NCBI RefSeq assembly: GCF_003334765.1 | Contig: NZ_QOWT01000014.1 | From: Escherichia coli | GTDB lineage: Bacteria > Pseudomonadota > Gammaproteobacteria > Enterobacterales > Enterobacteriaceae | Direction: 5' to 3' (one strand) | Length of the DNA stretch: 64,000 nucleotides | Program-made: the position numbers and the translations under genes | In this document: positions 3,106 through 56,323 of the stretch, piece by piece | Position numbering within the stretch: position 1 is the first letter of the stretch | Layout of the letters: every line of letters begins with the position of its first letter | The notes under the pieces: generated by a model | Database searches by the model: none | What the model saw: the letters and a program-made list of their open reading frames with translations, nothing else | What the model was told of the DNA's origin: nothing

Positions 3106-4206
3106 ATGACCCCCGAACACCTTCCAACAGAACAGTATGAAGCGCAGTTAGCCGAAAAAGTGGTACGTTTGCAAAGTATGATGGCACCGTTTTCTGACCT
3201 GGTTCCGGAAGTGTTTCGCTCGCCGGTCAGTCATTACCGGATGCGCGCGGAGTTCCGCATCTGGCACGATGGCGATGACCTGTATCACATCATTTTCGAT
3301 CAACAAACCAAAAGCCGCATCCGCGTGGATAGCTTCCCCGCCGCCAGTGAACTTATCAACCAGTTGATGACGGCGATGATTGCGGGTGTGCGTAATAATC
3401 CCGTTCTGCGCCACAAGTTGTTCCAGATTGATTACCTCACTACGCTGAGTAATCAGGCGGTGGTTTCCCTGCTATACCATAAGAAGCTGGATGATGAGTG
3501 GCGTCAGGAAGCGGAGGCCCTGCGCGATGCACTGCGCGCGCAGAATCTGAATGTGCATCTGATTGGTCGGGCAACGAAAACCAAAATCGAGCTGGATCAG
3601 GATTACATCGATGAACGTCTGCCGGTCGCAGGGAAAGAGATGATCTACCGTCAGGTAGAAAACAGCTTTACCCAGCCGAACGCGGCGATGAATATTCAGA
3701 TGCTGGAATGGGCGCTGGACGTAACCAAAGGCTCAAAAGGCGATTTACTGGAGCTGTACTGCGGCAACGGTAACTTTTCATTAGCGCTGGCGCGTAATTT
3801 TGATCGGGTATTAGCCACCGAAATCGCTAAGCCGTCGGTTGCTGCTGCGCAATACAACATCGCAGCTAACCATATTGATAACGTACAAATTATTCGTATG
3901 GCGGCAGAAGAATTTACTCAGGCGATGAATGGTGTGCGCGAGTTTAACCGCCTGCAAGGGATCGACTTAAAGAGTTATCAGTGCGAAACCATTTTTGTCG
4001 ACCCACCGCGCAGCGGTCTGGACAGTGAAACCGAGAAAATGGTGCAGGCGTATCCGCGTATTTTGTACATCTCCTGTAACCCGGAAACGTTATGCAAGAA
4101 TCTGGAAACATTAAGCCAGACGCACAAGGTCGAACGTCTGGCTCTGTTTGATCAGTTCCCCTACACGCACCATATGGAGTGCGGCGTATTACTGACCGCG
4201 AAGTAA
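3106..4206 (+). CDS. trmA: tRNA (uracil54-C5)-methyltransferase
   Basis: 366 aa ORF recognised as TrmA; C-terminal SAM-dependent RNA methyltransferase motifs ([14 protein letters not shown]). Confidence 0.95.
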
Positions 4207-4245
4207 AACCCATGCCGGATGCGCCAGCATCCGGCATAATACCGA

Positions 4246-4605
4246 TTACTCAGCAACTTCCTGCTTACGGTTACGCATCTTCGCGCCAATCCAGAACACC
4301 ATAATGACGGAGAGTACTGCCGGGAAGAAGTTAGAGCCGATATCCGGATATTCCGCACGAACTACCGTGCTGTACAGCAGTACGCCGAGAATAAAACAGG
4401 CAGCTGCCAGACCCGGCAAGCCTACCGGCATAGTGCGATTAAGATAACGTTGATGCAGGCAGTAAACCGTCAGCACCAGGGAAATAATCGGGAATACAGA
4501 AAATGGCACAATGGAGCTAAACAGCGCTGCGAAAGTACCATTAATCGATAAGCCAGCAACTAACGCCAGCAGCAGCGTACCTCTATCTTGATTTGCTTGT
4601 TTCAT
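4246..4605 (-). CDS. yijD: small inner-membrane protein of unknown function (DUF1422 family)
   Basis: 119 aa hydrophobic ORF with about four predicted TM segments; its ATG overlaps the fabR stop (TAATG). Confidence 0.85.
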
Positions 4606-12680: not shown

Positions 12681-12907
12681 AACGTAGGCCGGATAAGGCG
12701 CTCGCGCCGCATCCGGCGCTGTTGCCAAACTCCAGTGCCGCAATAATGTCGGATGCGATGCTTGCGCATCTTATCCGACCTACAGTGACTCAAACGATGC
12801 CCAACCGTAGGCCGGATAAGGCGCTCGCGCCGCATCCGGCACTGTTGCCAAACTCCAGTGCCGCAATAATGTCGGATGCGATACTTGCGCATCTTATCCG
12901 ACCTACA
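12681..12907. repeat. tandem duplication (about 123 bp unit, 2 copies) of a BIME made of two inverted REP palindromes
   Basis: Unit GTAGGCCGGATAAGGCGCTCGCGCCGCATCCGGC...GCCGCAATAATGTCGGATGCGATGCTTGCGCATCTTATCCGACCTACA occurs twice (from about 12684 and 12807), with only single-base differences visible. Confidence 0.9.
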
Positions 12908-51780: not shown

Positions 51781-52527
51781 ATGGCTGATTGGGTAACAGG
51801 CAAAGTCACTAAAGTGCAGAACTGGACCGACGCCCTGTTTAGTCTCACCGTTCACGCCCCCGTGCTTCCGTTTACCGCCGGGCAATTTACCAAGCTTGGC
51901 CTTGAAATCGACGGCGAACGCGTCCAGCGCGCCTACTCCTATGTAAACTCGCCCGATAATCCCGATCTGGAGTTTTACCTGGTCACCGTCCCCGATGGCA
52001 AATTAAGCCCACGACTGGCGGCACTGAAACCAGGCGATGAAGTGCAGGTGGTTAGCGAAGCGGCAGGATTCTTTGTGCTCGATGAAGTGCCGCACTGCGA
52101 AACGCTATGGATGCTGGCAACCGGTACAGCGATTGGCCCTTATTTATCGATTCTGCAACTAGGTAAAGATTTAGATCGCTTCAAAAATCTGGTCCTGGTG
52201 CACGCCGCACGTTATGCCGCCGACTTAAGCTATTTGCCACTGATGCAGGAACTGGAAAAACGCTACGAAGGAAAACTGCGCATTCAGACGGTGGTCAGTC
52301 GGGAAACGGCAGCGGGGTCGCTCACCGGACGGATACCGGCATTAATTGAAAGTGGGGAACTGGAAAGCACGATTGGCCTGCCGATGAATAAAGAAACCAG
52401 CCATGTGATGCTGTGCGGCAATCCACAGATGGTGCGCGATACACAACAGTTGCTGAAAGAGACCCGGCAGATGACGAAACATTTACGTCGCCGACCGGGC
52501 CATATGACAGCGGAGCATTACTGGTAA
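51781..52527 (+). CDS. fpr: ferredoxin/flavodoxin-NADP+ reductase
   Basis: 248 aa ORF with FAD-binding RAYSY and NADP-binding motifs and C-terminal ...AEHYW. Confidence 0.95.
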   Translation: MADWVTGKVTKVQNWTDALFSLTVHAPVLPFTAGQFTKLGLEIDGERVQRAYSYVNSPDNPDLEFYLVTVPDGKLSPRLAALKPGDEVQVVSEAAGFFVLDEVPHCETLWMLATGTAIGPYLSILQLGKDLDRFKNLVLVHAARYAADLSYLPLMQELEKRYEGKLRIQTVVSRETAAGSLTGRIPALIESGELESTIGLPMNKETSHVMLCGNPQMVRDTQQLLKETRQMTKHLRRRPGHMTAEHYW

Positions 52528-52531
52528 GCGG

Positions 52532-52960
52532 TTACTTATCGATAAACGGCACGATGAGCAAATCCGCACTCATCTTATTGATCATCCCGCGATATGCCGG
52601 CATCAAACGGTTGATAAATGAGTGATGATGACCACAGACAAGGAGGTCGCACTGCTCTTTTTGCATAATTTCCAGCAGTGTTTCCGGCATTTCTCCGCGT
52701 TCAATACGCAGTTTTGTCTTCGGCCATTGAATATTTTTCGTCAGTTTATACAGCTTGTTATCCGACTTATTCTTCAACAATTGAAGAATATCTTCTGTTG
52801 CAGGGAAGTAGATACCCGGATACAACTCGCTTAAGCCATCATCAATATGAATTAACGTCAGGTGAGCGTCATTATGTCTGGCGAGCTCCAGGGCTTTATT
52901 CACCAGTAAGGCATCTTCTTCATTCCCGGAAATTGCCACGCCAATGTGTTTATAAGCCAT
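52532..52960 (-). CDS. uspD: universal stress protein D
   Basis: 142 aa ORF recognised as UspD/YiiT ([41 protein letters not shown]...). Confidence 0.92.
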
Positions 52961-52986
52961 GTTTAACTCCTTCTAAAGCAACTCCA

Positions 52987-53286
52987 TCAAGCTAACGAAC
53001 GCAGTGATAACTCAAAAATAATCATCTCGGCCTGGCATGAGAAAGTGAAGGCCGCATCAAGCTCAACTTGCCCCTCCAGATCCTTAATCTTATAGGCCAC
53101 GCTGGCCCCTTCATCTGCAGAGGATGTAGCGGCGGCAAGCTCTTTCAGTTTGGTCATAAAAGACTCTGCTTCTTCGCGGGTGGCAAAAAAGCGCGAAAAC
53201 TTACTGGTACAGTTGTCGTTATCAATCACCGTACCGATATCAATCGCACATCCTTTAGTACTGCATTTATCTACGACATCTTTCAT
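52987..53286 (-). CDS. yiiS: small protein of unknown function (DUF406/UPF0381)
   Basis: 99 aa ORF; position and sequence match K-12 yiiS. Confidence 0.85.
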
Positions 53287-53497
53287 AGGGCACCTCTGTA
53301 TATTCGCCTCTCTGTCGATTACGACTTAAGAATAATGCGCCGTTAAGGGAAGAACAAACAAGTAATGATCTTATGGATTACCATTTTTTTTGATATTGCT
53401 TAAGGTGAAGAGTTCAGAAGGATTTTCCGGGTATTGTCATTTGCATCGTGGAAATAACAATCCCGGAAAAAAATAGCAGTAAGAGATATATTAAAGG

Positions 53498-53938
53498 TTA
53501 ATTACTTGATTTATTGTCGGCTTTATACTTCACATCCTGAGTATCTTTACCATATTTATTTTCGCCTTGTGTGCCAACAAACGCACCAAGATCGATAAGC
53601 ATCATCACCAGAATCAACGTCGGGACAAAACGCCCCACCGCCCATTGCCAGACACCCGGTAAAATCGCCCAGTTACCCGCCAGCAGCATCCACGCCACAA
53701 TCATCAGAAATGCCCATGCGCCGGAACGCCCGCGATCATGCAAGCGCTTAACAGTTACTGCCGCTGTTGGCCAGAGCAAGCACACAAGGCAAAACGCCGC
53801 GGTCTGAATATCGAGTAGATTCTTACCCGCCAGTGAGAAAAGCACCAGCATGCCTGCGAACCACAGGCCTATCCAAATCCAGAAATCACGGCGTCCAATA
53901 CGCCCTTTAAATGAGAATAACCATTGCTGTATGGTCAT
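53498..53938 (-). CDS. yiiR: inner-membrane protein of unknown function (DUF805)
   Basis: 146 aa ORF with three to four hydrophobic segments; matches K-12 yiiR. Confidence 0.85.
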   Translation of the reverse strand: MTIQQWLFSFKGRIGRRDFWIWIGLWFAGMLVLFSLAGKNLLDIQTAAFCLVCLLWPTAAVTVKRLHDRGRSGAWAFLMIVAWMLLAGNWAILPGVWQWAVGRFVPTLILVMMLIDLGAFVGTQGENKYGKDTQDVKYKADNKSSN

Positions 53939-54038
53939 GTAAGTTCCTTGATGGTTGTCTTTTCCAGGATTCTACCCTTTTGACAAGGGCGACAGATATC
54001 GTTTTAATCGGAGCCAGTCATAACAAAAGGTACTGTCA

Positions 54039-54638
54039 ATGAAGCCAGGGTGTACGCTGTTTTTTCTCTTATGTTCTGCATTAACCGTTACAACAGCGGC
54101 GCATGCACAAACACCAGATACGGCAACGACCGCGCCTTATCTGCTGGCTGGAGCCCCTACTTTCGATCTCTCCATCAGCCAGTTTCGAGAAGACTTTAAC
54201 AGCCAGAATCCCAGCCTGCCACTGAACGAATTTCGTGCCATCGACAGCAGTCCCGACAAAGCCAATCTCACTCGTGCTGCAAGTAAAATTAATGAGAACT
54301 TGTATGCTTCTACAGCGCTGGAGCGCGGTACCTTAAAAATCAAAAGCATTCAAATGACCTGGCTACCCATCCAGGGGCCAGAGCAAAAAGCCGCGAAAGC
54401 GAAAGCTCAGGAATACATGGCAGCGGTGATCCGCACACTCACCCCATTAATGACCAAAACACAAAGCCAGAAAAAACTGCAGTCGCTACTAACGGCGGGG
54501 AAAAACAAACGTTATTACACCGAGACAGAAGGTGCACTGCGTTATGTTGTCGCGGACAACGGCGAAAAGGGGCTGACCTTCGCTGTTGAACCGATTAAGC
54601 TGGCGCTATCTGAATCGCTTGAAGGTTTGAATAAATGA
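54039..54638 (+). CDS. yiiQ: secreted protein of unknown function (DUF1454)
   Basis: 199 aa ORF with signal peptide (MKPGCTLFFLLCSALTVTTAAHA); matches K-12 yiiQ. Confidence 0.85.
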   Translation: MKPGCTLFFLLCSALTVTTAAHAQTPDTATTAPYLLAGAPTFDLSISQFREDFNSQNPSLPLNEFRAIDSSPDKANLTRAASKINENLYASTALERGTLKIKSIQMTWLPIQGPEQKAAKAKAQEYMAAVIRTLTPLMTKTQSQKKLQSLLTAGKNKRYYTETEGALRYVVADNGEKGLTFAVEPIKLALSESLEGLNK

Positions 54639-54745
54639 CAAAAAGCAAAGCCTTTGTGCCGATGAATCTCTATACTGTTTCACAGACCTGCTGCCCTGCG
54701 GGGCGGCCATCTTCCTTTATTCGCTTATAAGCGTGGAGAATTAAA

Positions 54746-55513
54746 ATGCGACATCCTTTAGTGATGGGTAACTGGAAACTGAACGGCAGCCGCCACATGG
54801 TTCACGAGCTGGTTTCTAACCTGCGTAAAGAGCTGGCAGGTGTTGCTGGCTGTGCGGTTGCAATCGCACCACCGGAAATGTATATCGATATGGCGAAGCG
54901 CGAAGCTGAAGGCAGCCACATCATGCTGGGTGCGCAAAACGTGGACCTGAACCTGTCCGGCGCATTCACCGGTGAAACCTCTGCTGCTATGCTGAAAGAC
55001 ATCGGCGCACAGTACATCATCATCGGTCACTCTGAACGTCGTACTTACCACAAAGAATCTGACGAACTGATCGCGAAAAAATTCGCGGTGCTGAAAGAGC
55101 AGGGCCTGACTCCGGTTCTGTGCATCGGTGAAACCGAAGCTGAAAATGAAGCGGGCAAAACTGAAGAAGTTTGCGCACGTCAGATCGACGCGGTACTGAA
55201 AACTCAGGGTGCTGCGGCATTCGAAGGTGCGGTTATCGCTTACGAACCTGTATGGGCAATCGGTACTGGCAAATCTGCAACTCCGGCTCAGGCACAGGCT
55301 GTTCACAAATTCATCCGTGACCACATCGCTAAAGTTGACGCTAACATCGCTGAACAAGTGATCATTCAGTACGGCGGCTCTGTAAACGCGTCTAACGCTG
55401 CAGAACTGTTTGCTCAGCCGGATATCGACGGCGCGCTGGTTGGTGGTGCTTCTCTGAAAGCTGACGCCTTCGCAGTAATCGTTAAAGCTGCAGAAGCGGC
55501 TAAACAGGCTTAA
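54746..55513 (+). CDS. tpiA: triosephosphate isomerase
   Basis: 255 aa ORF with the TIM active-site region ([18 protein letters not shown]). Confidence 0.97.
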
Positions 55514-55567
55514 GTCTGACAGGTGCCGGATTTCATATCCGGCACTTACTTTCCTTAACTCTTCGCC

Positions 55568-56323
55568 TTAACGCAAAATCTCACACTGATGATCCTGAAT
55601 TTCCTCGGCTGAAGCACGGTTAAGCGTCAGTAGATTTCGTTGTGTCGCCAGCAATACAAATGAGTTATCACTCTGCCGTACCATCGCCAGCCCGTAGCGT
55701 CCCATATGTTCCCGCGCCTCAGGTACTTCTTCTGCCAGCATCATAAATGGGCTGCGTTGTACCAGTTCGCTTTCCGTTACCCGACGCGCCAGGTATTCAT
55801 GCCCGCGCAAACCACCTGGCAGTGGCAACCAGCGGCTGCTGATGTTCGCCAGATTGTTATCCAGCTGTTTGCGCACATCAGGACGAATACAAGAGATATG
55901 AATATGAAAATGGTTTTGCGTACGCCCGGTGCGGGAGTTGATCGCCAAAGAAACCGCGCGATCGGGAACCGGCTGGCCGTATTTTTTGCTCATAAAATCA
56001 CGCGCCTGCCAAGCCAACCAAAAGAAGTTCGGCGTTGAAGGATCGGTCAACAAAGGACTTTCAGTACCGTTAATACGATACGTTGGCATCAACAGATATT
56101 GCAGTGGGCCATTAAGATCTTTTAAAACCACGTATCCGGCATTGGGTTTGACTTCCGCACATGGCGAAGGATTTTGATTTTGCTGCTGATTGGGCAAACA
56201 TTCCTCAAGGACAATCTTACGTAATGTATCCGACTCTTCACCGGTTAATTTCCAGTAACCAATACCGGCAGCCACAACGGCGATAACTATCATCACCAAA
56301 AAAAGAAGACCCGCTTTTTTCAT
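55568..56323 (-). CDS. cdh: CDP-diacylglycerol pyrophosphatase
   Basis: Start at [24 protein letters not shown] gives 251 aa with a single N-terminal TM anchor; the ORF-track extension to 56515 is spurious. Confidence 0.9.

Follow-up and report, generated by a model that had tools for sequence, protein, structure and literature searches.

The window analysed here is a 64 kb stretch of Escherichia coli DNA, and the subject is a run of four genes, uspD, yiiS, yiiR, and yiiQ, at positions 52532-54638 between fpr and tpiA. Comparative and sequence analyses show these to be four genuine core genes, which very probably represent three independent transcription units that accumulated stepwise at the fpr-tpiA junction. 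An fpr-yiiQ-tpiA backbone would be the old state; yiiQ, with its predicted periplasmic product, would be the oldest layer, and it carries its own conserved promoter motif in the Enterobacteriaceae. In the lineage of this family, the yiiR gene would then have been added between fpr and yiiQ, in divergent orientation. In a last step, the stress operon yiiS-uspD would have been added between fpr and yiiR in Escherichia, to be transcribed from the 211 bp gap upstream of yiiS; both of its products would be cytoplasmic. There is no indication that the four products work together.

Neighbourhood across the Enterobacterales

The YiiQ locus was compared among genomes taken one per species. A scan with a nine-sequence YiiQ alignment identified 334 genomes that encode a YiiQ relative; the best 80 of the 334 loci were taken and queried by tblastn with nine E. 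coli proteins of the region. In these best 80 loci and in E. fergusonii, yiiS and uspD were found at the YiiQ locus in Escherichia only (E. coli, E. albertii, and E. fergusonii). The 77 non-Escherichia Enterobacteriaceae loci include Citrobacter, Salmonella, Klebsiella, Raoultella, Enterobacter, Kosakonia, Kluyvera, Lelliottia, Cedecea, Buttiauxella, and Pluralibacter. All 77 contain glpX-fpr and a yiiR gene divergent from yiiQ-tpiA, with no yiiS or uspD. The yiiR gene lies between fpr and yiiQ in every Enterobacteriaceae locus scored (79/79). The stop codons of fpr and yiiR are 0-9 nt apart, abutting or overlapping, in 51 of these 79 loci; the distance is at most 121 nt in all 77 non-Escherichia loci and 953-970 nt in Escherichia.

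Six distant Enterobacterales loci, including that of Tatumella ptyseos (Erwiniaceae), were also compared. Their TpiA and YiiQ proteins share 75-84% and 32-55% sequence identity with those of E. coli, respectively. In all six, yiiQ and tpiA follow each other on one strand and no DUF805 gene is present beside yiiQ; yiiR was found between fpr and yiiQ in none of them (0/6). In five of the six, fpr is directly upstream of yiiQ; the two genes overlap by 17 nt at one extreme and are separated by 27 nt at the other. The four-gene run itself was found at the junction in 0/77 non-Escherichia Enterobacteriaceae loci and in 0/6 distant loci. A preliminary description of this DNA had implied that the four genes form a unit, and had named unrelated expression and the lack of a conserved neighbourhood beyond close relatives as what would refute it; the run is confined to Escherichia, and the grouping does not hold. 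Gene content, synteny layers, and conserved motifs are observations. From these we infer insertion rather than loss as the direction of events, as we infer all the biochemical roles discussed below.

The fpr-yiiR gap of Salmonella and Citrobacter (39-121 nt) contains a GC-rich palindromic sequence of repetitive extragenic palindrome (REP)-like type (GCCGGATAAGGCG...CATCCGGC). This gap is the same junction that yiiS-uspD occupies in Escherichia.

Gene content of the locus

The window corresponds to ~4102253-4166375 of E. coli K-12 MG1655 in reverse complement, with 99.99% identity, and the RefSeq names of the four genes are identical (uspD, yiiS, yiiR, and yiiQ). The 2.4 kb segment with all four genes is present in 5426/5426 complete E. 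coli genomes. The four open reading frames (ORFs) first described agree with the ORF list and the sequence in coordinates, strands, and sizes, and so do the gaps of 211 bp (yiiS-yiiR, 53287-53497) and 100 bp (yiiR-yiiQ, 53939-54038). The features of the locus are as follows.

51781..52527, plus strand: fpr, flavodoxin/ferredoxin-NADP+ reductase, left flank (ORF and K-12 annotation)
52532..52960, minus strand: uspD, universal stress protein of 142 aa, second gene of the yiiS-uspD operon
52961..52986, minus strand: yiiS-uspD spacer, 26 nt with an AAGGAG ribosome-binding site
52987..53286, minus strand: yiiS, DUF406/TIGR00743 protein of 99 aa, first gene of the operon
53325..53393, minus strand: block of ~70 nt upstream of yiiS, with TAAT-N10-ATTA inside
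53389..53415, minus strand: sigma-E-type motif for yiiS-uspD, GAACTC-N16-TCAAA
53423..53470, minus strand: long hairpin between yiiR and the yiiS promoter, with nine-nt perfect arms
53498..53938, minus strand: yiiR, DUF805 protein of 146 aa, predicted inner-membrane
53969..53974, minus strand: candidate yiiR -10 element, TAGAAT in E. coli
53980..54008, plus strand: candidate sigma-70-type yiiQ promoter, TTGACA-17 nt-TTTAAT
54039..54638, plus strand: yiiQ, DUF1454 protein of 199 aa, predicted periplasmic
54639..54745, plus strand: yiiQ-tpiA spacer, 107 nt with a GC-rich stem-loop at 54690-54707
54746..55513, plus strand: tpiA, triose-phosphate isomerase, right flank and constant downstream neighbour of yiiQ

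The domain families assigned to the four products were confirmed by Pfam: Usp for UspD (E = 1.3e-20, full-length match, residues 3-138), DUF406 for YiiS (E = 1.3e-28), DUF805 for YiiR (PF05656, E = 9.5e-19, residues 7-131), and DUF1454 for YiiQ (PF07305, E = 5.5e-92, residues 9-192). The preliminary description had called the whole run uncharacterised. For yiiR and yiiQ, the literature searches gave only incidental mentions. Because the yiiS-uspD operon is documented, UspD phenotypes are reported, and a YiiS structure (2k3i) has been solved, the run is less uncharacterised than claimed.

Transcription of the yiiS-uspD operon

The yiiS and uspD genes were assigned to one transcription unit by Yamanaka et al. 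(PMC4222967). The locus in the window is that of the K-12 yiiS-uspD (yiiS-yiiT) operon of the YdeO, sigma-E, and GadEWX regulons, with essentially identical sequence. The pair shows the features of a bicistronic operon: one strand, a short and clean spacer, and published co-induction. Only the ribosome-binding site was found in the spacer, where the promoter/terminator scanner gives nothing; at 26 nt, the spacer is too short for a separate promoter and terminator. The spacer of the pair is 27-29 nt in E. fergusonii and in a second copy on the asr island described below.

For the operon and its regulators we rely on the literature. YdeO binds in the yiiR-yiiS spacer, as found by chromatin immunoprecipitation with microarrays (ChIP-chip) in vivo and by electrophoretic mobility shift assay (EMSA) in vitro (PMC4222967). 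On YdeO overproduction, quantitative reverse-transcription PCR (RT-qPCR) gave log10 increases of 0.72 for yiiS and 0.70 for uspD, whereas the yiiR level was unaffected; a yiiS-lacZ fusion was also YdeO-responsive (PMC4222967). Expression within the run is thus uncoupled: YdeO induces yiiS and uspD but not yiiR. The sigma-E regulon includes the yiiS-uspD operon (PMC2731931), and yiiS serves as a sigma-E reporter, which goes up in an rseA mutant and down on degS deletion in a prc mutant (PMC6941253). Regulation of yiiS/uspD by GadX and GadE was reported, as was a link between a yiiS knockout and general acid resistance (PMC4918353). A peak of the sigma-S holoenzyme in systematic evolution of ligands by exponential enrichment (SELEX) falls in the region (PMC5493296). 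Published inducers of uspD are sigma-E, YdeO, mitomycin C, cadmium, and H2O2. The text of the sigma-E paper of Rhodius et al. 2006 does not list yiiS.

Within the 211 bp gap, the motif tGAACTc-N16-TCAAA lies at 53415-53389 on the minus strand. It has one match in the 64 kb window, versus 0.15 expected by chance. Promoters of the sigma-E type have a GGAACTT-like -35 and a TCAAA-like -10 element, which are ~16 nt apart. The motif is a good match to this consensus. The block at 53325-53393, including TAAT-N10-ATTA, is also found upstream of the yiiS homologues of Klebsiella and Kluyvera, which lie at other chromosomal sites. It also contains a possible TTGnnn-17/18-TATnCT promoter, and it has no Rfam match. 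The block is probably a promoter or leader sequence; it could act as an activator site or a leader element.

In at least three complete E. coli genomes, an IS1 element interrupts the yiiR-yiiS spacer and hence the promoter region of yiiS-uspD. One example is E. coli WEM25, at 1244-1941 of its locus.

YiiR and the hairpin behind its gene

Four hydropathy peaks were found in YiiR, at residues 19-37, 44-62, 75-93, and 104-122. Together with the Pfam match, the four hydrophobic segments give YiiR its likeness to the DUF805 membrane proteins, and it is predicted to be a four-helix inner-membrane protein. No NCBIfam model matches YiiR, and no relative was found in a sequence search of the PDB. A literature search found no functional study of YiiR.

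The yiiR-yiiQ intergenic region was aligned for 58 distinct Enterobacteriaceae sequences, and positions identical in at least 90% of them were taken as conserved. The conserved block AGTTTACCC is -10-like on the yiiR strand (53974-53969); it reads TAGAAT in E. coli and TAAACT in most other genera. No convincing -35 element for yiiR was seen. The blocks TTTTGACAAG and CGTTTTAATC form the motif TTGACA-17 nt-TTTAAT (53980-54008), which is placed right for yiiQ and is flanked by variable DNA. The two gaps had been suggested to hold independent promoters. This is supported for both of them: experimental data speak for the yiiS promoter, and conserved sequence blocks for that of yiiQ and, less strongly, that of yiiR.

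The spacer between yiiR and yiiQ is 225 nt in Citrobacter gillenii and in one Citrobacter sp., versus ~100-115 nt otherwise. In both Citrobacter loci a repeat of ~125 nt splits the -35 and -10 blocks of the yiiQ motif. The repeat presumably resembles an element of the enterobacterial repetitive intergenic consensus (ERIC) type.

A long hairpin (53423-53470) begins 28 nt past the yiiR stop codon, directly upstream of the sigma-E -35 element. Its nine-nt perfect arms extend to ~24 pairs (dG -22.8 kcal/mol, z = -6.2). All three Escherichia species compared (E. coli, E. albertii, and E. fergusonii) keep the stem, and one pair shows a compensatory change. On both strands a U-run precedes the stem and an A-run follows it; after the stem, the yiiR strand reads AAAAUCC and the opposite strand A7, and the hairpin is absent from the terminator scanner output. 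With no U-tract behind the stem in either direction, the hairpin does not qualify as a canonical intrinsic terminator. The hairpin may be an insulator or a 3'-end-stabilising structure between yiiR and yiiS. That it is an ancestral fpr/yiiR terminator was considered and ruled out, since other genera show zero gap or REP-like sequence there.

YiiQ and its adjacency to tpiA

The N-terminus of YiiQ (residues 1-23) contains a hydrophobic segment and a signal-peptidase-type site (AHA|Q); there is no lipobox and no further hydrophobic segment. Hydrophobic N-termini were found in 29/29 aligned members of the family. YiiQ is thus predicted to be periplasmic via a Sec signal peptide. The earlier term "secreted" agrees with the predicted signal peptide, and it stays a prediction. 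In a transposon screen of Salmonella, yiiQ was among the desiccation-survival genes (PMC5596212).

YiiQ is a full-length member of DUF1454, and its AlphaFold model has a predicted local distance difference test (pLDDT) score of 88. Its remote fold neighbours are DUF2066 and the UTRA/chorismate-lyase-like domains, and a PDB sequence search found no relative. In the structure search, the AlphaFold-database matches listed carry DUF1454/YiiQ annotations or are uncharacterised, and almost all belong to Enterobacterales genera. The family is small, with 111 representatives (50% identity) in a set of 1.84 billion proteins. The genera of the DUF1454 matches listed include Yersinia, Serratia, Dickeya, Sodalis, Erwinia, and Pantoea, and further Hafnia, Edwardsiella, Budvicia, Proteus, Providencia, and Photorhabdus. 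These genera, from Yersinia to Photorhabdus, span the families of the Enterobacterales.

In every informative locus, including three whose wider context differs, tpiA directly follows yiiQ on the same strand; the spacer is down to just 32-62 nt in two of the distant loci. There might therefore be a functional tie between yiiQ and tpiA, either by read-through into tpiA or by a role of YiiQ linked to triose-phosphate metabolism. Such a tie is unlikely. The 107 nt spacer of E. coli has a stem-loop (54690-54707), which is a terminator-like scanner hit, with a fold that is not significant (z = -0.7). The predicted tpiA promoter was stated to lie within a fragment that starts 150 bp before the tpiA ATG (PMC4006690). 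Nor is it evident how a periplasmic protein would be linked to a cytoplasmic enzyme of glycolysis. Moreover, the whole glpFKX-fpr-tpiA-cdh-sbp-pfkA region is syntenic, and the adjacency may be inertia.

YiiS and UspD proteins

YiiS matches the NCBIfam models NF007435 (197 bits, cut-off 130) and TIGR00743 (131 bits). The nuclear magnetic resonance (NMR) structure of the Shigella orthologue, 2k3i, matches YiiS over all 99 residues (E = 3.4e-59); VPA0419 (2jz5) and VC_A0919 (2khd) are DUF406 proteins that also have NMR structures. The AlphaFold model of full-length YiiS, made to see whether the Cys-rich N-terminus packs onto the core, has a beta-alpha-beta-beta-alpha core, which agrees with the DUF406 fold, and residues 1-23 have pLDDT below 50. 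The authors of the structural work found no more than a distant similarity, to pterin-4a-carbinolamine dehydratase (PMC2860719).

Sixteen enterobacterial YiiS homologues (47-100% identical) were aligned, and Cys8, Cys13, Cys26, and Cys84 are invariant among them. Cys84 is located within the C-Q-A-E motif of YiiS, in which E87 is also conserved. In the depositors' numbering, this DUF406 motif includes the residue with the highest conservation in the family, and a ligand site has been suggested there (PMC2860719). Vibrio DUF406 proteins retain the first Cys pair only. The NMR work found residues 1-28 disordered in 10 mM dithiothreitol (PMC2860719) and, taking them as disordered, truncated VPA0419. 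In enterobacterial YiiS, in contrast, conservation is highest in the N-terminal segment up to C26 and in the C84-Q-A-E motif. Hypothetically, the N-terminus of YiiS might be metal- or redox-dependent.

UspD matches the NCBIfam equivalog model NF007436 with 329 bits (cut-off 203). Its nearest solved relative is the UspA structure 1jmv of H. influenzae (E = 7e-22). Like the class I proteins UspA and UspC, UspD is a single small full-length Usp domain with no ATP-binding glycine motif; a regular-expression search for G-x2-G-x9-G-[ST] found no match in it. UspA-type proteins do not bind ATP (PMC8509486). However, UspD is far under the equivalog cut-offs of UspA (96 vs 202 bits) and UspC (81 vs 167 bits). 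UspD also differs from these two in its very narrow distribution, as nearly all of its relatives at E <= 1e-10 belong to Escherichia/Shigella, and in having a DUF406 gene as its operon partner. A review reported for UspD, as a class I protein, a function in superoxide defence and an effect on intracellular iron (PMC8509486).

Origin and mobility of the DUF406 and Usp genes

The YiiS homologues of Klebsiella and Kluyvera (57-63% identical) are solitary and lie at other loci with no Usp gene nearby. Since they share the ~70 nt upstream block with Escherichia yiiS, the gene seems to have moved with its regulatory region. A second DUF406-Usp pair (62% and 57% identical, respectively) was found immediately downstream of asrABC, the genes for anaerobic sulfite reductase. 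It lies on an island that also carries AlpA, Hha, and YfjJ-type genes (OU349843.1, 3232-6423 of the locus). This pair is present on three contigs and in 3-4 of 5426 complete E. coli genomes; in strain TUM12357 its DUF406 gene is decayed. Solitary UspD-like genes, 57-65% identical to UspD by tblastn, were found on IncFIB conjugative plasmids of Salmonella (such as pSA20051401.2, 4001-4441 of the locus) and on one Salmonella contig, with no DUF406 gene nearby. The presence of UspD-like and DUF406-Usp genes on an island and on plasmids indicates that they are mobile. DUF406-Usp is a recurring pairing, not an obligate one.

It was also considered that DUF406-Usp is a mobile two-gene stress cassette with YiiS and UspD as partners. 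The YiiS cysteines (C8, C13, C26, and C84, the last by the conserved E87) would then bind a metal, an iron-sulfur (Fe-S) cluster, or a redox signal, and the signal would be passed to the ATP-independent UspD. We regard this as distinctly unlikely. If true, the partnership would explain the iron and superoxide phenotypes of UspD. The occurrence of the pair at two unrelated sites, by fpr and by the Fe-S/flavin genes asrABC, is compatible with a redox or iron role.

One metagenome contig (2543-4918) contains a tandem arrangement, yiiR-yiiS-[Usp::DUF805 chimeric ORF]-yiiS-uspD. This is either a real duplication of yiiR(3')-yiiS-uspD(5') or an assembly artefact.

Weighing of the explanations

Several points weigh against a stepwise accumulation of three transcription units. 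The best 80 of the 334 loci are all from the Enterobacteriaceae, and the distant loci other than Tatumella ptyseos are placed at best to family, by the label of a metagenome-assembled genome (MAG). The polarity of gain versus loss comes from parsimony over the sampled loci. The constant yiiQ-tpiA adjacency of the proposed backbone need not reflect a functional link and could be frozen synteny. Promoter positions are motif-based throughout. The conserved yiiQ -10 element TTTAAT is without the usually critical A at position 2, and for this reason the consensus scanner, with its strict -10 rule, missed the motif. Finally, E. albertii and E. fergusonii (one genome each) are without the GAAC of the sigma-E -35 element and keep the -10 region. 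Among the three Escherichia species compared, the -35 element would thus be specific to E. coli. As it is missing in two sister species, the sigma-E motif is possibly only part of the promoter story.

Alternatively, yiiS-uspD, and possibly yiiR, might have been ancestral at the junction and deleted repeatedly elsewhere. The DUF406 genes of Klebsiella and Kluyvera share the upstream block, so yiiS is old within the family. However, this explanation needs many independent clean deletions, which in most genera would have to leave just 0-9 nt between the fpr and yiiR stops. Relatives of UspD hardly occur outside Escherichia, and the genes of this type on the island and the plasmids are mobile. We therefore consider ancestral presence very improbable; repeated clean loss is much less likely than stepwise accretion.

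It is extremely doubtful that the four genes form one envelope/oxidative stress module next to the redox gene fpr: their adjacency in all 5426 E. coli genomes, their predicted locations over cytoplasm, membrane, and periplasm, the response of yiiS-uspD to the envelope-stress sigma factor, and the place of yiiQ in the Salmonella desiccation list would fit such a module, but presence in 100% of E. coli is expected of any core segment, the run is non-existent outside Escherichia, the yiiS homologues are solitary elsewhere, the distant Enterobacterales have no yiiR next to yiiQ, YdeO leaves yiiR uninduced, and the units are set apart by a strong hairpin and by promoter motifs of their own.

Other features of the window

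The convergent genes fpr and uspD have their stop codons 4 nt apart (TAA gcgg TTA, 52525-52534), and terminators have no room there. The folds at this junction and in the yiiQ-tpiA spacer are no better than those of shuffled sequence. An Rfam scan of 51500-55800 at E <= 1 gave a chance microRNA match within tpiA as its sole match. PADLOC found no match in the region; PHROGs gave a generic Usp family match and two weak ones, none of them relevant. Hit counts of the consensus promoter/terminator scan were not above those of shuffles, and owing to its strict -10 rule the scan overlooked both of the conserved motifs. A terminator-like stem with a T-rich tail is present within the yiiS coding sequence on the sense strand (53168-53192, minus strand). 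This hit is probably due to chance, as the regional total of such hits equals the shuffle expectation.

The run had also been described as the largest stretch of the window without an assigned function. This holds only if names of the "putative" kind count as assigned. Otherwise, the ptsA-frwC-frwB-pflD-pflC-frwD-yijO block of the window, in which all product names are "putative", is a rival of ~8.6 kb. Against K-12 MG1655, the window aligns as two pieces that overlap at 12683-12907 in the ppc-argE intergenic region; this implies ~123 extra bases, probably one more copy of an intergenic repeat.

Implications

Much of this locus was already known: all four genes are annotated, the yiiS-uspD operon and its regulators are published, and the YiiS structure is solved. 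To the known operon, the present analyses add that its site is Escherichia-only, that its sigma-E -35 element appears to be E. coli-specific, and that a second pair exists on a rare island. The asrABC-linked second pair, the four invariant YiiS cysteines, and the conserved hairpin after yiiR are small new points. What these analyses correct is the view of the run as a candidate functional cluster, which should be dropped. The Enterobacterales-wide yiiQ-tpiA, the Enterobacteriaceae yiiR, and the Escherichia-only yiiS-uspD each merit separate study. If true, a YiiS-UspD partnership would be the first biochemical handle on the ATP-independent universal stress proteins. The locus exemplifies gene stacking at a convergent junction, where a recently arrived operon would have been wired into the sigma-E, YdeO, and GadX regulons.

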